Shown: positions 1,286 to 58,432 of the stretch, in pieces
How the letters are laid out: the number at the start of each line of letters is the position of its first letter
Position numbering within the stretch: position 1 is the first letter of the stretch
DNA from: Alphaproteobacteria bacterium
GTDB lineage: Bacteria; Pseudomonadota; Alphaproteobacteria; Bin95
Direction of reading: 5' to 3'
Assembly (NCBI GenBank): GCA_963665325.3
Contig: CAXXWS020000002.1
Location: forward strand, 1,184,001 to 1,248,000
DNA length: 64,000 bases
Made by a program: the position numbers and the translations under genes
Notes under the pieces: model-generated
The model's database searches: none
What the model saw: only the letters and a program-made list of their open reading frames with translations
What the model was told of the DNA's origin: nothing

Positions 1286-2281
1286 CTATTGCATTCGGTG
1301 CGGGTCGAACCGCAGGGTCAGCGACTTCCAGAGTCCCATCTTGCCCGGAGGCACATCCAGTTGCTCGCAAAACGGATGGCGCAGCGCGCGTTCCGCGCGC
1401 TCCTGGGCGGCCCGGTAACTGCGGCTGCCCTTGCTGTCCACGGCCTTGATCGAGGTAACGCGCCGATCGGAACCGAGCGCGACCTGCAGCACGACGATAT
1501 GGCGCTCGGCTGGGGCGAGGCCAGGAATGGTTTGCCAGCAGCGTGAAAGCTGCCGAAACAACCGGTGCTTCTCGGATATGGTGAAGACCGGCTCCTCGGC
1601 TTCCTCGCGCGCAGGCGGCGTATCGTCCGATACGGCGCTTCGCAGGGTGTCGAGATCGTTCGGGAGCGCGGCCTGGCGAAGCGCCTTGAGTTCGTCGGGC
1701 GGGTCTGCCGGCGCGGCTTGCGGAAGCGGTGGAGGCTCCGGCGCCGCTTGCGGTTCGGGAGCTTTCGGGGCCGGTTTCGCCCGCGCCTGCTGCTGCGGGG
1801 GACGCTGCGGCAGGGGCGGTGGCTTCGGATCGGACGCCGGGGGCGCCTTCTCGGGCTCCCGCGGGCTCGGAGGGAGCGGCGCGACTGCGGGCGCCGGCTC
1901 AGGCTCCGGCAGCGGTTGGGGCTTCGGCGGCTCCGGGGCGAGTGCGGCGACCTGCACGGGCTCTTCCTGCGGTACCGGCTCGGCGGGCGGCGTCTCGACG
2001 GGCGGGGGCTCTGCTACCACCGGCTCCGGCTCGGAAGGCTTCTCGACAGGCGGGGGCTCTGCTACCGCCGGCTCCGGCTCGGATGCTGTGTCGGGAGGCG
2101 ATGGCTCCACCGGAGGCAGGGGTCCCTTCGCTTCCGTGCGCTCGCTCACCATCGTCACCGTGACCGGAATCGGCACTTCCAGAGGATCGGGCGCATCGTG
2201 CAGCGCCGGCAATCCCACGACGCTCAGGATCAGGAGGCCGATATGGGCAAGCGCCGAGATGAGCAGGCTTGAATGCGTCAC
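1286..2281 (-). CDS. tolA: TolA/TonB-like energy transducer
   Basis: N-terminal TM segment (SALAH), long Pro/Glu-rich linker, TonB-C-like end (LRFDP); positioned between tolR and tolB. Confidence 0.8.
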   Translation of the reverse strand: MTHSSLLISALAHIGLLILSVVGLPALHDAPDPLEVPIPVTVTMVSERTEAKGPLPPVEPSPPDTASEPEPAVAEPPPVEKPSEPEPVVAEPPPVETPPAEPVPQEEPVQVAALAPEPPKPQPLPEPEPAPAVAPLPPSPREPEKAPPASDPKPPPLPQRPPQQQARAKPAPKAPEPQAAPEPPPLPQAAPADPPDELKALRQAALPNDLDTLRSAVSDDTPPAREEAEEPVFTISEKHRLFRQLSRCWQTIPGLAPAERHIVVLQVALGSDRRVTSIKAVDSKGSRSYRAAQERAERALRHPFCEQLDVPPGKMGLWKSLTLRFDPHRMQ

Positions 2282-2718
2282 CGGGAAGTTCCCGCGGGCG
2301 GCAACTCCGCCATCAGCGACACCTTGTCGAAGCCTGCGGCCGCCAGCGCCCCCATGACCTCCATTACCCGACCGTAGTCGATGGCCCGGTCGCCGCGGAT
2401 ATAGACATAGGTGTCGCTGCGCGCGCCCATGATCGCACGCAGCTTCGCCGCGAGCCGGTCGAGGTCCACCTCGGTCTCCTGGATATGGACCCGGCCCTCG
2501 GCATCGACGGTGACGACCAGCGGCTCGTCGCGGTCTGTAAGCTGCGCGGCCTGCGTCTCCGGCAGGTCAACCGGCACCCCGACGGTGAGCAGCGGCGCGG
2601 TGATCATGAACACGACCAACAACACCAGCATGACATCGACCAGCGGCGTCACATTGATTTCGCTCATCGGGCTGTATCTACGCCCGCGCCGGCCCGGTCC
2701 TCCAAGGGGAGCGACCAC
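2278..2718 (-). CDS. tolR: TolR (ExbD family)
   Basis: EINVTPLVDVMLVLLVVFMITAP signature. Confidence 0.95.
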   Translation of the reverse strand: MVAPLGGPGRRGRRYSPMSEINVTPLVDVMLVLLVVFMITAPLLTVGVPVDLPETQAAQLTDRDEPLVVTVDAEGRVHIQETEVDLDRLAAKLRAIMGARSDTYVYIRGDRAIDYGRVMEVMGALAAAGFDKVSLMAELPPAGTSR

Positions 2719-2719
2719 C

Positions 2720-3451
2720 TCAGCCGGCCTCCGAGAGTTCGCGCGAGGTGACGGTGACTACATCGGCGACGAGCCCGTCCAGCCTCGCCCCGTAGCGGTT
2801 GATGTCGTTCGAGAACTTGTTGTAGGCGACGACCGCCGGGATTGCGGCGACCAGCCCGAGCGCGGTTGCGAACAGCGCTTCGGCGATGCCCGGCGCGACG
2901 ACGGCAAGGTTGGTCTGCTTGGACGCCGCGATGGCGGCAAAGCTGTTCATGATGCCCCACACCGTGCCGAACAGGCCGATGAACGGCGAGACCGACCCGA
3001 CCGACGCCAGGAAGATCATGTGTCGTTCGATACGGTCCATCCAGCGGCCGGCTTCGACCGTCATCACCCGCTCGACCCGCGCCTGTAGCGCCCCGCGGGC
3101 GGTCGCGTCCGCCAGCGTGCCGCTGCCCAACGAGCCTTGCAGTTCAAGCATCGCTTCGCCGAACACACAGCTCATCGGATCGCGGTCCTTGTGGCTGACC
3201 TCCGCATGCAGGTCTTCCAGGGAGGCGACCGACCAGAACAGTTCCTCGAAGCCGTTGGCGTCGCGATTGAGGCGGCGCAACCGGCGCCATTTGTCGAAAA
3301 TGATGGCCCAGGACATGACGGAGGCGAGCAGCAGCACCAGCATCACCGCCTTGACGACAATATCGGCCTGCAGAAACAGGCTGAACGGCGAAAGCGTGTC
3401 CGCCGCTGCAATCGAACCGGAGACCAGGCCCTGCACCAGTGCATCGTCCAT
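2720..3451 (-). CDS. tolQ: TolQ (MotA/TolQ/ExbB family)
   Basis: SPFIGLFGTVWGIMNSF and VVAPGIAEALFATALGL motifs. Confidence 0.96.
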   Translation of the reverse strand: MDDALVQGLVSGSIAAADTLSPFSLFLQADIVVKAVMLVLLLASVMSWAIIFDKWRRLRRLNRDANGFEELFWSVASLEDLHAEVSHKDRDPMSCVFGEAMLELQGSLGSGTLADATARGALQARVERVMTVEAGRWMDRIERHMIFLASVGSVSPFIGLFGTVWGIMNSFAAIAASKQTNLAVVAPGIAEALFATALGLVAAIPAVVAYNKFSNDINRYGARLDGLVADVVTVTSRELSEAG

Positions 3452-3458
3452 TGGCTGA

Positions 3459-3893
3459 CTAACCTTCTCTCAATTCATCCCGCAATTGGGCAAAAACATG
3501 GCGCAATCGCACCGGAAGCCGCTTGGGGCGGCCATTCTCGCCGAGCCTGGCGATGCGGATCCGAATCGTCACCAACAGTTCGCCAGCCCGCCATATACTC
3601 TGCGTCAGCGACATTGTCGCGCCGCTGACGCCCGTTGGCCTCGTGCGCACTTCCAACGCGTCGTCGAGCCGGGCCGGCCGATGGTAGCGAATGGTGCAAT
3701 CGACCACCGCGAACGCGATATGCCGGTTGGTGAAACCCAGTTGCCGCAGCAATTCGGTGCGGGCGCGCTCGGCGAAGCGAAGATAGGCGGCGTGATAGAC
3801 GATGCCGCCCGCGTCGGTGTCCTCATAGTAGATGCGGACCGGAAAGACATGGTCTTTCCGGCCGGGCTGCCCGCCTTCGGCGTCAGCCCCCAT
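3459..3893 (-). CDS. ybgC: YbgC/FadM acyl-CoA thioesterase
   Basis: [28 protein letters not shown] motif; start placed at ATG 3893; classic position between ruvB and tolQ. Confidence 0.93.
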
Positions 3894-4905
3894 CGAACAG
3901 GTCTCCCGCGCTCCGGGGCGGCGGAAGGCCGAGGCACTCCCATCCCTGCCGCGAGAGCGTGCGTCCGCGCGGCGTGCGCAGCACCAGCGCCTCCCGGATG
4001 AGGTAGGGTTCGACCACCTCCTCCAGCACGTCGCGCTGCTCTGCGAGCGTGGCGGCAAGCGCTTCGGCTCCGGCGGGGCCGCCGCCATAGACTTCCGCCA
4101 GGCAGCGCATGTAGCGCCGGTCCATGGCGTCGAGGCCGAGCCGGTCCACCTCCAGCTGCACGAGGGCGGCGTCGGCCGCCACCTGGTCGATCTCGCCGCG
4201 CCCTGCCACAGCGGCGAAGTCATGCACCCGGCGCAGCAGCCGGCCTGCGATTCGCGGCGTGCCCCGCGCCCGTCGCGCGATCTCGAGCGCGCCTGCATCG
4301 CTCGCCGGAATGCCCAGCAGACCGGCGGCGCGCGCCACAATGCTCGCGAGTTCCTCCGGTTCGTAGAAGTCGAGGCGCAGCGGGATGCCGAAGCGCTCAC
4401 GAAGCGGCGTCGTCAGCAGGCCGGCGCGTGTCGTGGCGCCCACCAGCGTGAAGGGCGGCAGGTCGATCCGCACCGAACGCGCGGACGGCCCCTCGCCGAT
4501 CATCAGGTCGAGCTGGCAATCCTCCAGCGCCGGGTAGAGGATTTCCTCGACCGCCGGGTTCAGGCGGTGGATTTCGTCGATGAACAGCACATCGCGCGGC
4601 TGGAGATTGGTGAGCAGCGCCGCGAGGTCGCCGGCACGCAGGATGATCGGCCCGGAAGTGGCGCGGAATCCGACGCCGAGTTCGCGGGCAACGATCTGCG
4701 CCAGTGTGGTCTTGCCAAGGCCCGGAGGGCCGACGAACAGCACATGGTCGAGCGCCTCGCCGCGCGCCCTGGCGGCGTCGATAAAGACCTTGAGGTTGCG
4801 CCGCAGCCGCTCCTGGCCCACGAATTCGTCCAGCGTCTCGGGGCGGAGCGCCACGTCGCGGTCTCCGGGCCGGTGTTCGGGCGCCACGTTTCGCTCCGCC
4901 GTCAC
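3883..4905 (-). CDS. ruvB: Holliday junction branch migration helicase RuvB
   Basis: [12 protein letters not shown], Walker [17 protein letters not shown]; GTG start at 4905 overlaps the ruvA stop. Confidence 0.97.
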
Positions 4906-5492
4906 CGCACAAGTTCCCTGAGGCTCGCCCGGACAAGGTCGTCGAAGGCGGCCGTCTCGCCGAGGCTGTGCCTTGCCGCTGCCGCCGCTGCATGGGCCTC
5001 GGAACGCCCGTAGCCGAGGTTGACCAGCGCCGAAAGCAGCTCGTCCCCTCCGCCCGCTCCGGCGGCGGCGGGCACGGCGAGCGCCGCGGCAGGCATGGCG
5101 GCCTTGCCCTTCACCTCGTTGACGATGCGCGTGGCCAGTCTTGGGCCGACGCCCTCGGCGCGGGTCAGCGCCTTGCGGTCCTCGGCGAGGACGGCGGTCA
5201 GCAGTTCCTCCGGTGCGAGCGCCGAAAGCAGCGCCAGTGCTACACGTCCGCCGACTCCCTGGACGCCGGTCAGATGGCGGAACCAGTCCCGCTCGGCGGC
5301 GTCGGCAAAGCCGTAAAGCGTGATCGAGTCCTCCCGGACCCTCGTCTCGACCAGCAGGGTGGCGTCCCGGCCGTTCTCCAGGCGTCCGGCCGTGCGGCCG
5401 GAAGTGTGGACCACATAACCGACACCGGCGACATCGACGACCAGCGCCTCGCCGTCGCCGAGATCGACGGTTCCGGTCAGGCGCCCGATCAT
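4902..5492 (-). CDS. ruvA: Holliday junction branch migration protein RuvA
   Basis: MIGRLTG...VVDVAGVGY...LYGF...GVGGRVAL...LVNLGY. Confidence 0.96.
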
Positions 5493-5986
5493 CCGGCCGC
5501 CGCCGCGAACGGCAGACGATGGGCATGGGCTATCGCTACCGCCAGCGCATCGGCCGCGTCCGCGCCCACGGGATTGCAGCCGGGCAACAGCAGGCGGACC
5601 ATGTATTGCACCTGCGCCTTGTCCGCCCCGCCTGCGCCGACCAGCGCCTTCTTGATGCTGCGCGGCGCATATTCCGCGACCGGCAGCCCGGCATTGGCCG
5701 AGACCACCAGCGCGGTTCCCCGCGCCATGCCGAGCTTCAGCGCGGCGCTCGCGCTGCGATGGACGAAAACCTCCTCCACCGCTGCCGTATCCGGCGCGAA
5801 TTGCTCGATGACACCGGTCAGGCCGGCGAAGAGTTCCGCCAGGCGGTCGGCGGTTTCGCCCGTTGGGTCGGGCTTCAGTTCGCCGTTGGCGACATGCGTA
5901 AGGCGTCCGCGGTGCGCATCGACGATCCCCCAGCCTGTCACCCTCAAGCCGGGGTCGAACCCGATGACCCGCTCGCCGCCGGTCAT
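5489..5986 (-). CDS. ruvC: Crossover junction endodeoxyribonuclease RuvC
   Basis: [18 protein letters not shown] and DAADALAVA catalytic motifs. Confidence 0.96.
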
Positions 5987-6732
5987 CCGGCGAGCCTGGC
6001 GAGCACCTCGTCCGACACGTCGTAGTTCGCCGAGACGTTCTGCACATCGTCATGGTCGTCGAGCGCCTCGAGCAGCTTGAATAGTACAGCGGCAGGCTCT
6101 TCCCCGACGGGAACCAGGGTTTGCGGCTTCCAGACCAGCTGTGCCGCCTGCGGCTCGCCGACGGACAGCTCCAGGGCCTCGCGCACGGCGTGCAGGTCTT
6201 CCGGCGCGGTCAGCACATCGTGGCCGTCACCGTCGGAGACCATGTCGTCCGCCCCGGCTTCGAGGGCGGCCTCGAAAATCTCGTCAGTGCTGGCCGCATC
6301 CTCGGCGAAGCGGATCAGACCCGCCCGGTCGAACAGGAAGCTCACCGAGCCGGTTTCGCCGAGCGATCCGCCGTTCTTCGAGAACGCGGCGCGGACATCC
6401 GCGGCCGTGCGGTTGCGGTTGTCGGTCAGCGCCTCGACGATCACCGCGACACCGGCCGGGCCGTATCCTTCGTAGCGCACCTCTTCATAGACCGCGCCTC
6501 CGTCGTCGCCGGCGGCACGCTTCATCGCGCGGTCGATACGGTCGCGTGGCATGTTGGCGGCGCGGGCGGCCTGGATTGCGGACCGCAGGCGAGGGTTCGA
6601 TTCGGGGTCCGGGGAACCGAGCTTAGCCGCCACCTCGATCTCGCGCCCGATCTTGGTGAACAGCCGCGCGCGCTTCGCGTCCTGCGCGCCCTTGCGGTAC
6701 ATGATGTTCTTGAATTGCGAATGTCCGGCCAT
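5983..6732 (-). CDS. yebC: YebC/PmpR family protein
   Basis: [35 protein letters not shown]. Confidence 0.96.
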
Positions 6733-50129: not shown

Positions 50130-50780
50130 ATGCTCAGCTTCGCCGAAGAGATGATGCTGCTCCTGCTCGACGATCAGGACGGCAGTTTTCTTCCTATCCC
50201 GGAATGGTCGATGCAGTGTGCCCTGGCGGGCGCAGTATTGATGGACTTGGCGTTGGCAGACCGGATCGACACCGACGTCGATTCGCTCATGCTGGTGGAC
50301 GAGAAGCCGACGGGAGACCCGCTGCTCGATCCTACGCTGGAACGCATCGCAGCATCCGGGGAAGTACACGGCGCGCGCTACTGGGTCGAGAACACGGCAG
50401 CCTATGCTGATGAAATCCGCGAGGGCGCGCTTGCCCGGCTCGTGGAGACCGGTGTTCTGAACCGGGAGGAGGACCGGTTCCTTTGGGTCTTCCGTTCGAG
50501 ACGTTACCCGACCATCGACGGCCGGGCGGAGCGGGAGGTCAAGCTCCGGATCATGGGCGTTCTACTGTCGGACGAGATTCCGGATCCCCGAGACATCGTC
50601 ATCATATGCCTCTGCGACTCCTGCGGTATTTTCAACGAATTGCTGTCGTCCCGGGAACTCGAGCGTGCCCGCGGCCGCATCGACCAGGTGCGCAAGTTGG
50701 ACCTGATCGGCCAGGCGGTCGCAAAATCCGTCTGGGAAATCCAGGCGTCGCTCGCGATGGCCGCGCACCCGGTCTACTAG
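50130..50780 (+). CDS. GPP34/GOLPH3 (Vps74-like) family protein
   Basis: LSFAEEMMLLLLDD, ALAGAVLMDLALADRI, TGDPLLD, FLWVF..RRYP. Confidence 0.85.
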   Translation: MLSFAEEMMLLLLDDQDGSFLPIPEWSMQCALAGAVLMDLALADRIDTDVDSLMLVDEKPTGDPLLDPTLERIAASGEVHGARYWVENTAAYADEIREGALARLVETGVLNREEDRFLWVFRSRRYPTIDGRAEREVKLRIMGVLLSDEIPDPRDIVIICLCDSCGIFNELLSSRELERARGRIDQVRKLDLIGQAVAKSVWEIQASLAMAAHPVY

Positions 50781-53384: not shown

Positions 53385-55766
53385 CTACATCCCGATACGC
53401 AGGCCGGCGAGGAATACGACCTCCGGGTTGCGGCCGGCATCGTGGCCGGGTTCGTGGCTCAATACAGCGCCCACGCGCCATACGGCATCGGGCCCGGCCG
53501 CCTCGGTCCAGTCGATGCCAAAATCGATCTCACGGCCCGATGGCGCCAGGCCGACAGGCACCTGCCGGCGCTGCACCGCGCCTTCCGGCGTCCGGCCTAC
53601 GGGAAAGGAGAGGCTGAGGCTCCCGCTCTCGACGCGGAGCGGCTGTTGCACGGAAAGCCTGAGCGTTCCGTTGTCGAACGCGTGCGCGGCCGCTGCGGAA
53701 AAGGCCGTGCTGAAAGCGCCCTTGCTTCCGTCGGCCAGCATCCCGCCGTCGGCCTCCGGTGTCGCGCGTCCGAATTCGGCAGCCGCGTCGAAGCGCCAGC
53801 CGCCGGCATCGAATGCGCCCGACGCGCCGACGAAATTGAGGCTCGAAGAGAGCCTGCCGAAGGCGCCTTCGGCGCTTGACCCGAATAGGGCGTCGGTTTC
53901 CCTGATCCAGCCCGCGTGAAGGCCGGCCGGCCCGTCCGCCGGCTGCCATGCGAGCGTGATCCCGTGCGTGTCGCCTTCCATCGTGCGGACGCCGGCCTCG
54001 CCGCCGGAGTCGGCCGAGGCGAAGGCGGCGAGCACCGTATTCCCGAGCCAGGCTTTCGCCGTTGCGGTGTGCGGCGCAAGGCTCATATGCCCGGCGCCGG
54101 GCGCGCCGAAGCCGAACTGCAGGCGACTCCCGGCCGGGCCGGCGCCTTCAGCCAGTGCGGTTTCGCCTTCGCGGGAAACGGTCGCTCCGGCGCCGTCCCC
54201 GTCCCGTTCGGCAAGCCATCGGGAGAGGCGCGTCGCCAGACCCGTTGGCGCCGGCTCGCGAACGAAATGCCCCGCATCCACCCAGAACGGCGCGTTGAGC
54301 GTGTCGAACAGGGCAATTTCGCTGCCCGCGAGGCTTCGCTCCATCCCGTCTCCCATGGCGTGGCCCGGCGAAAACCAGCTCGATTGCGCCGACGGACCGC
54401 TGCCGTCCGCCCGACTGCCCAACACGACGGACATCGTGCCGGCCGGTGCCGTGGCGGCATCGAGGTCCATAAGCCCGCGTCCCAATATCGAGGAGAGCTC
54501 GCAGTCGCGCAGGTCGCCGTCCAGATCGAGATGGGCCGGGCAGGCGCCGCCGGATGAGACGGTGTCGGGCGTCACCTGCGCCGTCTCGTAGAGCCGGGTC
54601 AGCAGTTCCTCGTTCGCCATTTGGCTGCGGAACCAGTGCTTGAGTACCGCCAGGCCGCCGGTGACGTAAGGCGCCGCGAATGATGTTCCGCGCCAACGGG
54701 CGTAGCCGCGCTCTTCATCCTGCGTCTGCTCGTCCCGTTGGTAATAGGCAACCGGCATTCGGTCGCCGGGCGCAGCGATACACCATTTCGCGGCGATCCC
54801 GCAGCGGTTGGAGAACGAGGCGATGTCCCCCTGGTCGTCCGTCGCCACGACGGCTACGACATGGCTGCGCAAGGTGTCCTCAAGCACGGGCAGCCCGGCG
54901 TAAAGTGTCGGCGAGGATGCGTCGAGCTCGCCCTCGACGCAGTTGGGCTCGGGGCTTGAGCATTTGTTGCCGTGGGCGTTGCCGGCCGCGATCACCAGGA
55001 CCGTCTTGCCGGTCGCCGTGCCCGGCTGTGCCAGGGTCCGGATCGCCGGCGCGTATAACGGACCGAAACTCGTGCTCAGATAATTCTCCACCAATCCCTT
55101 GATGGAAAAGCTCATATTCACGAAATCGGCCGGTCGTGTCAGCATTGAGAACTGCCGCGCGAGCCAGTCAACATTACTTTCCACATTCGTCGGCGTGGAT
55201 CCCCGGTAGTCCTCATCCGGATCGGCGCTGCCGAGGCGGACGGCGTACATTTCAAGATGGTCGATGCCCCAGGCAACGCCATGGAAGTCATGGTCCGAGA
55301 GCTCGGGCGGATCGTCGGGCACCGGCCCGTCGCGGGTCGCCGCGATAATGCTGGCCACCGCCGTGCCGTGATCCTTGTCCGGATCGGCCAGGCCGGACTC
55401 GGTGAGGCGGCTCGAGTCGAATTCCCAGTGCCCGCTGTCGATACCGTTGTCGATGACCGCGACGCGGGCGCCGGCGCCGGGCGCTGTTTCGGCGCCGTCC
55501 CGCAGGGCAATCCTCGCGTAAGCTGTTGCTGCGTTGATCTGTCGGAGCCCCCAAGCCGCCTCGTATTCGGCGTCGTTCTCATAACCCCCGATGGCGCCTT
55601 GCAGCGGTGAGGGGCGGGGTGCTGGAGAAGAAATCTGGCCGGAACCGGGTGCGCTCGGGCCACCGCCGGCGGAACGCGCGATACCCCCTCCTCCTCCTCC
55701 GCCACAGCCGGCCGCCATCGCCGTTAGCGCAATCGCCGCCGCCAATCTTGTCGTTGTCGTCGTCAT
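53385..55766 (-). CDS. S8 (subtilisin-like) serine peptidase lipoprotein with a beta-rich C-terminal domain
   Basis: Lipobox-like AAGCGGGG; catalytic triad VIDNG / HGTAVAS / GTSFAAP; AAGN oxyanion motif. Confidence 0.9.
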   Translation of the reverse strand: MTTTTTRLAAAIALTAMAAGCGGGGGGGIARSAGGGPSAPGSGQISSPAPRPSPLQGAIGGYENDAEYEAAWGLRQINAATAYARIALRDGAETAPGAGARVAVIDNGIDSGHWEFDSSRLTESGLADPDKDHGTAVASIIAATRDGPVPDDPPELSDHDFHGVAWGIDHLEMYAVRLGSADPDEDYRGSTPTNVESNVDWLARQFSMLTRPADFVNMSFSIKGLVENYLSTSFGPLYAPAIRTLAQPGTATGKTVLVIAAGNAHGNKCSSPEPNCVEGELDASSPTLYAGLPVLEDTLRSHVVAVVATDDQGDIASFSNRCGIAAKWCIAAPGDRMPVAYYQRDEQTQDEERGYARWRGTSFAAPYVTGGLAVLKHWFRSQMANEELLTRLYETAQVTPDTVSSGGACPAHLDLDGDLRDCELSSILGRGLMDLDAATAPAGTMSVVLGSRADGSGPSAQSSWFSPGHAMGDGMERSLAGSEIALFDTLNAPFWVDAGHFVREPAPTGLATRLSRWLAERDGDGAGATVSREGETALAEGAGPAGSRLQFGFGAPGAGHMSLAPHTATAKAWLGNTVLAAFASADSGGEAGVRTMEGDTHGITLAWQPADGPAGLHAGWIRETDALFGSSAEGAFGRLSSSLNFVGASGAFDAGGWRFDAAAEFGRATPEADGGMLADGSKGAFSTAFSAAAAHAFDNGTLRLSVQQPLRVESGSLSLSFPVGRTPEGAVQRRQVPVGLAPSGREIDFGIDWTEAAGPDAVWRVGAVLSHEPGHDAGRNPEVVFLAGLRIGM

Positions 55767-55970
55767 AGTTCTGCTTGCGATCTGCTCGTTGGGTGCAATG
55801 CCGCCGCCATCATCGACGCCGTTGAGATAAACAATCGTAAGAGTTGCAATAACTAAAAGGAATGGGGAAGCGCAATGCGGGCGGTCTGTGCTTGCACCCG
55901 AAAGCCGGCCGCGCCACGATGACCGGGATGGCCGGTCGATGCCGCGCCCGAGCATTCTATTGGGGGCCAC

Positions 55971-57020
55971 ATGCCGCTCGCATCCAGGCGCTACGAGGTT
56001 GCCGACATGATGGCGGCACAGGAATTCTATCACAGCCGAGGCTGGACCGACGGGCTGCCGGTGGTGCCGCCGACGGACGAGGCTGTCGAGGCCTGCCTGG
56101 AGTGGGCAGGCCTGCCGCCGGCCCATCTGGTGGGCGTCGAACCCGTGCGCGCCCGTGCGGTCACGGCTGAGAAGCTTGCGATCAACGCCGTCATGGCTGG
56201 CTGCCTGCCGATGCATTTCCCGGTGGTCGTCGCGGCGTTCACGGCGATGCTGCAGGAGCCTTTCCTGCTGCACGGCGCGACCGCCAGCACGGGCGGCTGC
56301 GCGGTGCTGGTCGTCGTCAACGGGCCGATTGCGGCCGAGATCGGCATGGACGCGACCTTCAACGCGCTCGCCTCCAGCGACCGCGCCTCTACAGTTGTCG
56401 GCCGGGCGCTGCGCCTCTGCCTCATCAACATGATGGATGTCCGGCCGGGCGCCATCGACCGCTCGGTGCTCGGCCACCCGGGCAAGATCAGCTATTGCGT
56501 GGCGGAGGACGAAGCCGGCTCACAATGGCTGCCGCTCGCCGAGGAGCGCGGCATGCCCGTCGGCGCCTCCTGCGTCACCGCAATGGCGGCCGGCGCGCCG
56601 CGCCAACTGATGAACGAGTGGACGACCGTTCCGGAGGAGATTCTGGACACCTTCGCCTCCGAGATACGCGCCAACATGCGCCACTATTCGATCTGGCCGG
56701 GCAACTACGCCATCGTCGTGCCGCCGCAATTGCGGGCCCACTTCCATGCCGCCGGCTGGTCCAAGGCGGATGTTCGCACCTATGTCTTCGAAAAGGCGCG
56801 TATCCTGCGCTCGGAATGGGCCGACTGCGGCAAGGGCGCGGTGGTGCGCGACCGCGGCGGTTGGGAATATACGGCGCTGTCGGCCCCGGAAGACCTGCTG
56901 GTGATCGCCGCGGGCGGCCCGGCGGGCGGCTTCGGCGCGGTCATTCCGCCCTGGCTCGGGCCCAAGAGCCGGGCGGTCACGGTCGCGATCGGCGCCTGCG
57001 TCGATTGCGAGATTCCATGA
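55971..57020 (+). CDS. Uncharacterised protein, partner of the UGSC selenoprotein
   Basis: GWTDGLPVVPPT, EKLAINAVMAGC, GHPGK and C-terminal CVDC; no function recognised. Confidence 0.85.
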   Translation: MPLASRRYEVADMMAAQEFYHSRGWTDGLPVVPPTDEAVEACLEWAGLPPAHLVGVEPVRARAVTAEKLAINAVMAGCLPMHFPVVVAAFTAMLQEPFLLHGATASTGGCAVLVVVNGPIAAEIGMDATFNALASSDRASTVVGRALRLCLINMMDVRPGAIDRSVLGHPGKISYCVAEDEAGSQWLPLAEERGMPVGASCVTAMAAGAPRQLMNEWTTVPEEILDTFASEIRANMRHYSIWPGNYAIVVPPQLRAHFHAAGWSKADVRTYVFEKARILRSEWADCGKGAVVRDRGGWEYTALSAPEDLLVIAAGGPAGGFGAVIPPWLGPKSRAVTVAIGACVDCEIP

Positions 57021-57049
57021 GGCGAACGATTTAGGAAGAGAGGTGAGGC

Positions 57050-57574
57050 ATGCGGATACTCGATCCGTCGCATGAAGAAGGGGCTGCGGGATTTGCGCCC
57101 GCGGTCCGGCTTGCGGCGCTGGAGGGCGCCACCGTCGGGGTGATCTCCAACGGCAAGGAAGGCACAAAGGGCTTCTTCGCCGCCTTCGAGCAGGCGCTCA
57201 GGGAACAATACGGCGTCGGCGAAGTCGTGCTGCGCACCAAGTCGAATTACAGCGCGCCGGCGGAAGCGGGCCTGCTGGAGGAAGCGAAGAACTGGGATGC
57301 GCTCGTCGCCGGCATTGGCGATTGAGGCAGCTGCTCGTCGTGCAGTTTGCATGACGCGGTTGCAGGAGAGCGCATCGGGGTGCCGTCAGCCGGCATCATG
57401 ACGGAAACTTTCGTGAGCGCGGCGGAGCTGATGGCGCGTGTGCTGGGTGCAGAGGACTATCCCTTTGCGGTGATCGAGCATCCGATCAGCAGCGCCGACC
57501 AGGCGGCGCTCGCGGCCCGCGCCGAGCGCGCTGCCGCGGACTGCGCCCGACTGCTTCTGGGCGCGGACGGGTAG
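57050..57574 (+). CDS. UGSC-family selenoprotein (174 aa; TGA at 57323-57325 decoded as Sec92)
   Basis: ORFs 57050-57325 and 57347-57574 are in the same frame and join as GIGD-TGA-GSCSSCSLHD; strong RBS only before 57050; SECIS-like hairpin follows. Confidence 0.88.
57327..57363 (+). promoter_or_regulatory. Bacterial SECIS-like stem-loop
   Basis: Lower stem GCAGCUG/CGGUUGC, CU bulge, upper stem CGUCGUGC/GCAUGACG, apical loop AGUUU starting 18 nt after the UGA. Confidence 0.75.
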
Positions 57575-57600
57575 GGCGCCGCCCTCCGAAGCCCGGTTCG

Positions 57601-57631
57601 GGCTCGCCGTCGTTTATCTTGGCGGCGAGCC
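57601..57631. terminator. Hairpin between the convergent selenoprotein and gluQRS genes
   Basis: GGCTCGCCGTC...GGCGGCGAGCC inverted repeat. Confidence 0.4.
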
Positions 57632-57673
57632 GGACTCCGCTCGAAATGTGTCCCACGTCGCGCGGGTTCCGTT

Positions 57674-58432
57674 CTAGAAGGTTCCGCTCATCTGCTCTAT
57701 GCGCGCCCGCACCTCCCCGGGAGACACGCCCGCCTGGCGCAGGCTTTGCAGCGTCAGCGCGCGGTCGCGCTTGGCGAGGCGGCGGCCGCTTGCATCGGTC
57801 AATACCGGATGGTGCTCATAGTCGGGCACCGGCAGGCCGAGCAGCCGTTGCAGGCGGTTCTGGATCGGCACGGCGAAGGCGAGATCCTCGCCGCGCGTCA
57901 CCAGGGTCACGCCCTGAAGCGCGTCATCGACGACCACGGCGAGGTGGTAGCTCGTGCGGATGTCCTTGCGCGCGACCACCGTGTCGTCCTCTGTCAACCG
58001 CAGCGCGTAAGCGTCGCCGCGCGCCATGCGGGCGTCGCGCTCGGCCTCGGTCAGCGCGCGGCATGTCCCGGCATAGGGCGCTCCTTCCGGGCCGTGCGGA
58101 GCCGTTGCCGCGGCCTCGATCTCCCTGCGGGTGCAGAAGCAGGGATAGAGCAACCCTTGAGCATCGAGCCGGGCGAGGGCGGCGGCATAGTCGTCCATGT
58201 GGTCGGACTGCCGGCGCACCGGCTCTTCCCATTCGAGGCCGAGCCAGGCGAGGTCTTCCAGGATGCCTGCCTCGAACTCGGGCCGGCAGCGACTCCGGTC
58301 GATATCCTCGATCCGGACGAGGAAGCGCCCGCCCGCGCGCGCCGCCCGGTCAGCAGCGAACAACGCCGAATAGGCGTGGCCCAGATGGAGCCTGCCGGTC
58401 GGGCTGGGGGCGAAGCGGGTGACTGTCTGCAT
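57674..58432 (-). CDS. gluQRS: tRNA glutamyl-Q(34) synthetase
   Basis: TRFAPSPTGRLHLGH, RIEDID, YPCFCTR, YHLAVVVDD, RLAKR; no anticodon-binding domain. Confidence 0.92.
   Translation of the reverse strand: MQTVTRFAPSPTGRLHLGHAYSALFAADRAARAGGRFLVRIEDIDRSRCRPEFEAGILEDLAWLGLEWEEPVRRQSDHMDDYAAALARLDAQGLLYPCFCTRREIEAAATAPHGPEGAPYAGTCRALTEAERDARMARGDAYALRLTEDDTVVARKDIRTSYHLAVVVDDALQGVTLVTRGEDLAFAVPIQNRLQRLLGLPVPDYEHHPVLTDASGRRLAKRDRALTLQSLRQAGVSPGEVRARIEQMSGTF

Follow-up and report, generated by a model that had tools for sequence, protein, structure and literature searches.

Positions 57050–57574 (+) of the window, the 64,000-nucleotide stretch of DNA analyzed here, very probably represent a single selenoprotein gene of the UGSC family, encoding 174 residues, for which our analysis predicts SelB- and SECIS-dependent insertion of selenocysteine (Sec). 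We regard it as a genuine selenoprotein gene because its frame is continuous except for one UGA, this codon is kept as UGA or Cys in homologues, a hairpin follows it, the genome encodes the Sec machinery, and the sequence beyond the UGA is under coding selection. The gene is a genuine and ordinary member of a described selenoprotein family, which is mis-split under translation table 11. Together with an unnamed partner gene directly upstream, which encodes 349 aa, it makes up a two-gene unit, and the two products probably work together.

The region consists of one frame of 174 codons followed by a TAG (57572–57574). From 57050 to this TAG the frame is free of stops, apart from a sole in-frame TGA at 57323–57325. 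Translation through the TGA, read as U, gives 174 residues with Sec at position 92, in the context ALVAGIGD-U-GSCSSCSLHDAVAGERIGVPS. The motif region reads GIGD-U-GSCSSCSLHD; U92 is therefore the first residue of U-G-S-C, and U92-x-x-C95 overlaps C95-x-x-C98. Under table 11 the same frame is listed as two ORFs, one of 91 aa with an ATG start (57050–57325, +) and one of 75 aa with a TTG start (57347–57574, +), and the seven codons between the TGA and this TTG are open. A purine-rich, Shine-Dalgarno-like stretch, GGAAGAGAGGTGAGG (57034–57048, +), lies just 5' of the ATG at 57050. No such run was seen in front of the TTG on reading the sequence, and the TTG itself sits at the loop of the downstream hairpin. 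Simple scans of positions 55600–57800 found no promoter or terminator. The sequence-only reading had proposed that the two ORFs share a frame and are split only by this TGA, that the TGA occupies the first position of a UxxC motif overlapped by a CxxC, and that the downstream half lacks a credible start or ribosome-binding site of its own. The ORF list, the translation and the sequence around the TTG bear out all three statements.

The read-through product matches the Pfam family PF24696 (UGSC) with an E value of 3.9e-47 and 161 bits, against a cut-off of 25. This match spans profile positions 2–171 of 172 and thus both halves of the frame. With C replacing U, the NCBIfam model NF041046 ("UGSC family (seleno)protein") scores 114.3 bits, which is under its 125-bit cut-off. 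G93 and C95 of the motif never vary across 41 aligned sequences, and conservation reaches at least 90% at D91, U/C92 and S94. As the earlier reading had acknowledged, the family is not new: it has been in print since 2007–2008. In the accessible parts of the two papers by Zhang and Gladyshev, the UGSC-containing protein is described as a selenoprotein of unknown function (PMC1976440, 2007), and 255 Sec forms versus 21 Cys forms are counted in Global Ocean Sampling data, together with a published fusion of UGSC to a domain called Unknown_1 (PMC2398784, 2008). The portion of PMC13188914 (2026) available to us still treats the function as uncharacterized. A literature search from 2009 on for UGSC or Unknown_1 returned only unrelated papers among the matches listed. 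Compared with the described family, the gene has the same full-length profile match, the U-G-S-C motif, the Sec/Cys column and a length of about 170 residues; nothing essential differs, except that it scores below NCBIfam's own cut-off. The copy number can also be set against the literature: there are six UGSC copies in this genome, versus 33 genes in 26 organisms in what could be consulted of the tabulation in PMC5029168.

The TGA is retained with great regularity. It is the codon before G-S-C in 30/30 orthologues and in all five paralogues of this genome, and these 35 TGA-keeping loci span three genera. Because the same position is found in all 35 related loci, the placement of the TGA is far beyond chance. 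At the level of the taxonomic family, homologues were found in 37/37 genomes, with one TGA in every match among the matches listed (32 further matches stand outside those listed). In a survey of the class, UGSC was detected in 33 of 301 sampled genomes, and among the 66 matches listed, 61 had one TGA and five had none. Sec forms therefore predominate here as they do in the accessible counts of PMC2398784. We also inspected the Sec column in 12 longer database homologues, where nine have Cys, and R, W and a gap occur once each; 11 of the 12 are full-length, which puts Cys at 9/11. A check of codon 92 in homologues, as the sequence-only reading had suggested, thus returned TGA at all 35 related loci and Cys in most full-length database homologues. 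The R and W occur in the full-length UGSC proteins P0123 and P0124 and could reflect CGA/TGG variants or a TGA that the source translated with a different code.

Variation among 16 same-genus orthologues follows the pattern of coding DNA on both sides of the TGA. Before it, 25, 18 and 67 of 88 columns vary at codon positions 1, 2 and 3, respectively; after it, the corresponding counts are 17, 19 and 55 of 78. Since third positions dominate the variation after the TGA, the second half of the gene is protein-coding.

The genome (5.58 Mb on five contigs) contains the genes needed for Sec incorporation. selB (442 bits) and selA (535 bits) are adjacent, selD scores 270 bits, and all three exceed their curated cut-offs. 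A tRNA-Sec was found with 72.6 bits, also over the cut-off, and ARAGORN calls it SeC with the anticodon TCA. Hence selA, selB, selC and selD, which the earlier reading had named as genes to look for, are all present. According to the established bacterial Sec pathway, a ribosome arriving at UGA-92 would receive Sec through SelB and Sec-tRNA(Sec), which would bind the hairpin just downstream. The selB and selA genes (C1:744702–747892) lie about 9 kb from a UGSC::partner fusion (C1:733785–735452) and a lone partner copy, perhaps by coincidence. SelD is encoded in locus L088 (C1:976000–984000) at 1951–4113 (+) as a 720-aa fusion of a Pyr_redox_2 domain to the AIRS/AIRS_C selenophosphate synthetase domains, and it resembles the Ndh-SelD fusion described in the accessible part of PMC2398784. 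A reassigned genetic code was also considered and was rejected because TGA terminates four of the eight window genes called with confidence, the partner gene among them.

A SECIS-like hairpin starts 1 nt 3' of the TGA (57327–57363, +; predicted folding energy -27.5 kcal/mol). It has a lower stem (57327–57334 with 57356–57363), an upper stem (57337–57344 with 57348–57355) and the apical loop GUU (57345–57347). Bacterial SECIS elements are recognized by an expected spacing from the UGA and a G in the loop. For DNA of 67.7% G+C the energy alone is unremarkable (z -1.76; 15 of 200 shuffled sequences fold as well). The same hairpin is formed in orthologues, with the upper stem and loop almost invariant over 34 sequences. 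In the hairpin alignment, which leaves out the sixth copy (L055), whose sequence after the TGA folds differently, 85.6% of the cells are paired, versus 16.6–54.9% for slid partners. Five pairs show changes on both sides, a number reached by 13 of 500 shuffles, and such changes in the upper stem occur in the paralogues L053 and L054. As many as 107 of 500 shuffles reached the covariation score of 0.126, and a slide of +3 gave the same value; with so little variation in the stem, the covariation signal is weak. The structure of the hairpin is conserved, though this is not proven by covariation.

The hairpin is supported independently by its nearly frozen synonymous sites. Among the 16 same-genus orthologues, the third position is variable in just 4 of the hairpin's 13 codons, versus 51 of 65 codons after it. 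Its codons include AGT, which accounts for 6 of 141 Ser codons in the window genes, and TTG, which accounts for 27 of 274 Leu codons. An Rfam scan of positions 56900–57700 (E ≤ 10) reported no SECIS family and returned three rows at chance level (E 4.2–6.3).

Assembled RNA-library contigs from two studies cover small shares of the stretch. One of them (X2, record 29) spans 57209–57388 and bridges the TGA. Another (X11, record 13) spans 56742–57531 with about 90% likeness and bridges both the TGA and the partner-UGSC junction. We take these contigs as weak support because they may include DNA and may stem from relatives. Three short X11 contigs (records 14–16) match only the 41 nt from 57317 to 57357, which comprise the Sec codon, the motif and part of the hairpin. 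DNA conservation within the family peaks in this segment, which is probably shared with relatives or paralogues in the X11 sample.

Two other readings of the UGA were weighed against insertion of Sec. If the TGA were a real stop, the product would be limited to the N-terminal 91 residues, and the region would hold either a broken gene or two separate small ORFs. Such a reading would agree with the two ORFs that table 11 yields, with the many database entries that are such halves, and with the normal use of TGA as a stop in this genome. But a nonsense mutation would not persist at one codon in all 35 loci, in three genera and in six paralogues. Furthermore, the dominance of third positions in the variation after the TGA (55 of 78, versus 17 and 19), a Pfam model that needs both halves and the presence of the Sec machinery all speak against a real stop, which we consider hardly credible. 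It would likewise be very surprising if the UGA were read by a near-cognate Trp or Cys tRNA rather than by Sec-tRNA, so that the product would be a sulfur or Trp protein. Cys forms of UGSC do exist, and one database homologue has W and another R at the Sec site. On the other hand, the genome retains a complete Sec system, the conserved hairpin with its frozen synonymous sites stands where a bacterial SECIS would be, and UGSC is treated as a selenoprotein family in the accessible text of PMC2398784. Sec insertion at codon 92 is therefore the reading that we adopt for the following sections.

Standard gene callers split the gene, as the earlier reading had anticipated, and the databases reflect this: entries often stop at about 52% of its length. 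Only 32 database proteins matched UGSC, versus 7,924 of 8,000 scored candidates for the partner gene. Of these 32, 14 are 95–131 aa long and cover 51–53% of the query, and we infer that they represent the N-terminal portion up to the TGA, as expected. In this genome, TGA hides at least nine selenoprotein genes from standard callers, namely six UGSC genes and three PrdB-like genes. The UGSC gene call as such matters only for annotation.

The partner gene (55971–57020, +) encodes 349 aa, and its stop codon, a TGA, lies 29 nt upstream of the UGSC start codon. Its product was matched by no Pfam or NCBIfam family (E ≤ 0.01), yet it belongs to a very large family. Its homologues, counted above at E ≤ 0.001, are called "hypothetical" wherever they are named; they fall into 4,754 clusters at 50% identity under the same threshold, or 883 clusters at E ≤ 1e-30. 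In the ESM Atlas the clusters are also named "hypothetical", except for one that carries the automatic name "Thioredoxin family protein" without Pfam support.

Association of the two families is constant in all the loci inspected. The partner was found by tblastn in 35/35 UGSC loci, and it lies directly upstream of UGSC in 30/30 orthologue loci (L048 is truncated at the end of its contig). A profile search that covered all six frames of the genome exhaustively gave a census of six UGSC domains, all with the TGA, and seven partner domains, arranged as four adjacent UGSC/partner pairs, two single-frame fusions and one lone partner. All six UGSC copies therefore adjoin the partner family or are fused to it. 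Besides the partner, no neighbour is common to the six UGSC loci, and a convergent gene for a pyridine-nucleotide-disulfide oxidoreductase is found at only one of them. We also examined 14 long partner homologues, which were chosen for their extra length and so do not sample the family at random. Four of them have a complete UGSC domain at the N-terminus, another four have the post-Sec half of UGSC, and three have a peroxiredoxin-like domain, AhpC/TSA or Redoxin, one of these together with the ferredoxin:thioredoxin-reductase domain FeThRed_B; the remaining three have no known domain.

Individual copies of this genome show some variation on the theme. The UGSC::partner fusion at L083 (C1:259964–261592, +) is one frame with a single Sec codon, and its partner domain has Ala in place of the near-invariant Cys78. 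The second fusion, at L085 (C1:733785–735452, -), is likewise one frame with a single Sec codon and has the motif GC-U-GSC. In the pair at L086 (C1:959000–970000), a 0.9-kb insert at about 5106–5991 separates the partner from UGSC. It contains a 98-aa VapB-like ORF (5595–5891, -) and then a PIN/VapC-like frame, both named by reading the translations, and on these grounds a toxin-antitoxin pair appears to have been inserted inside this two-gene unit.

We then turned to predicted structures. The UGSC model is confident (pLDDT 92.2, pTM 0.87) and has five beta-alpha units, with strands at residues 28–33, 58–63, 84–87, 113–118 and 140–142 alternating with helices. In this model U92 lies in the loop after strand 84–87, and C95 is at the start of helix 96–108. 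The Foldseek matches listed include flavodoxins, the EF-Tu G domain, lumazine synthase and WrbA, with TMq values of 0.37–0.50. A wide fold search gave a plateau from Z 10.6 (3qk7_A, rmsd 3.1, 121 aligned residues) to Z 8.9 at rank 50, and the matches listed there include subdomains of LacI/periplasmic-binding proteins, CheY-like domains and PurE. Among the matches listed by either search there was no thioredoxin-fold chain, and no family of the Pfam thioredoxin clan matched. The matches listed are flavodoxin-like and Rossmann-like domains, and the predicted fold of UGSC is a generic flavodoxin-like arrangement. This model differs from the Trx-like fold suggested in print, since the accessible part of PMC13188914 puts UGSC among proteins with such a fold. 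In common with thioredoxin-fold UxxC/CxxC selenoproteins (Trx-, Prx- and DsbA-like), UGSC has a redox-type UxxC at a helix start, and AhpC/TSA or Redoxin domains occur in some fusions of its partner; the predicted topology of five beta-alpha units would set it apart from them.

The partner is also modelled with confidence (pLDDT 94.3, pTM 0.93). Its conserved pocket comprises D27-G-L-P30, N72, C78, R138, R145, C176 and E179. Foldseek gave no match for it at E ≤ 0.001, the best being 7xky_A with a TMq of 0.27, and the wide fold search gave nothing at Z ≥ 8; its best match, 3a43_A (Z 7.5, rmsd 2.4, 79 aligned residues), is confined to residues 219–327. Sequence-profile searches of the PDB revealed no usable relative of either protein (best E 0.37 for UGSC and 1.2 for the partner).

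A parallel can be drawn with selenoprotein B of glycine/sarcosine/betaine reductase (GrdB) and with PrdB of D-proline reductase. These proteins and UGSC have the motif U-x-x-C(-x-x-C) in common, and in both cases a small Sec subunit is paired with a larger protein that lacks Sec. GrdB and PrdB work with the proprotein subunits GrdE and PrdA. The 349-aa partner is not a recognizable GrdE or PrdA because no Pfam family matches it (nor any NCBIfam family at E ≤ 0.01), and its best PDB hit by sequence is the E value of 1.2 given above. The UxxCxxC motif of GrdB is also mentioned in the accessible part of PMC13188914.

The Pfam family PF07355 (GRDB) did not match the UGSC read-through product (E ≤ 0.01), but it does detect the PrdB-like genes of this genome. 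When the UGSC profile was aligned with a PrdB-like profile of 29 sequences by hhalign, the probability was 38.9% (P 3.2e-4) over 96 columns, with Sec placed on Sec and the invariant E-x-x-G of one family on the E-x-x-G of the other. Against a single sequence the probability was 2.9%. These profile comparisons are suggestive of a distant relationship between the Sec domains of UGSC and GrdB/PrdB, which is not established. A PDB sequence-profile search with the PrdB-like family gave a best E value of 0.0081, to a de novo design, and found no GrdB or PrdB structure. The three PrdB/GrdB-like genes of this genome, L089 (C1:281484–282194, +), L090 (C4:88229–88879, +) and L091 (C4:442418–443080, +), each have an in-frame TGA, in the contexts LLVPV-U-PNC, VLAAN-U-PVC and LMVPV-U-PVC, respectively. 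These genes add to the selenoprotein genes of this genome and would likewise be split under table 11. In the class survey this family was found in 41/301 sampled genomes, mostly with the TGA.

On balance, the modelled fold and the pairing lead us to favour a two-part enzyme to which UGSC would contribute the selenol/thiol redox subunit and the 349-aa partner the other one. UGSC, modelled as a small alpha/beta domain of the flavodoxin-like type, would be redox-active, with U92 and the invariant C95 alternating between the selenol/thiol and the selenenylsulfide state. The partner would be the second subunit, probably binding the substrate, and electrons for UGSC would come from a thioredoxin-type system. 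The replacement of the near-invariant partner Cys78 by Ala in the fused copy counts against this function, as does the lack of any neighbour besides the partner that is common to the six loci. A broader proposal, which we make more tentatively, is that UGSC and the 349-aa family may be the subunits, sometimes fused, of a widespread class of selenoenzymes. UGSC would then be a flavodoxin-like Sec domain, a distant relative of the Sec domain of GrdB/PrdB, re-reduced by thioredoxin-type systems, and the six modules of this genome would be diversified in substrate beside different catabolic genes. The constant pairing provides a concrete pair of proteins to co-express and assay, and the fusions of the partner to thiol-redox domains do likewise.

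UGSC could also be a true selenoprotein that acts as a free-standing, thioredoxin-like thiol oxidoreductase, with no mechanistic meaning in its adjacency to the 349-aa gene. Its UxxC motif is typical of such proteins, and the accessible part of PMC13188914 lists it with proteins of Trx-like fold. We regard this as unlikely in view of the five beta-alpha units of the confident model, the listed matches to flavodoxin, the EF-Tu G domain, LacI/periplasmic-binding-protein subdomains and CheY-like domains, and the adjacency or fusion to the partner in 6/6 copies of this genome and 30/30 orthologue loci, with fusions in other lineages as well. Still less do we expect UGSC and its partner to be a selenium or sulfur carrier or delivery system, feeding for instance SelD or a cofactor pathway, instead of an enzyme that reduces a substrate. 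One fused copy does lie about 9 kb from selB and selA, and SelD is fused to a pyridine-nucleotide-disulfide oxidoreductase domain. However, nothing connects the UGSC copy at 57050–57574 to the sel genes, and the six copies are dispersed in the genome, next to catabolic genes of various kinds (amidohydrolase, Rieske oxygenase, short-chain dehydrogenase, luciferase-like monooxygenase). Given these neighbours, substrate-diversified enzymes fit better than one housekeeping carrier.

Two further ORFs of the window were noted in passing. The 216-aa ORF at 50130–50780 (+) matches Pfam PF05719 (GPP34, Golgi phosphoprotein 3; E 1.6e-45), a family named for a eukaryotic protein. On the strand opposite to the partner gene, table 11 yields a 1,030-aa ORF (53385–56477, -) for an S8 subtilase, with the Pfam match at residues 334–633. 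Its 5' part overlaps the partner gene and is probably spurious, and a lipoprotein-like start, MTTTTTRLAAAIALTAMAAGC, is found further inside this ORF.
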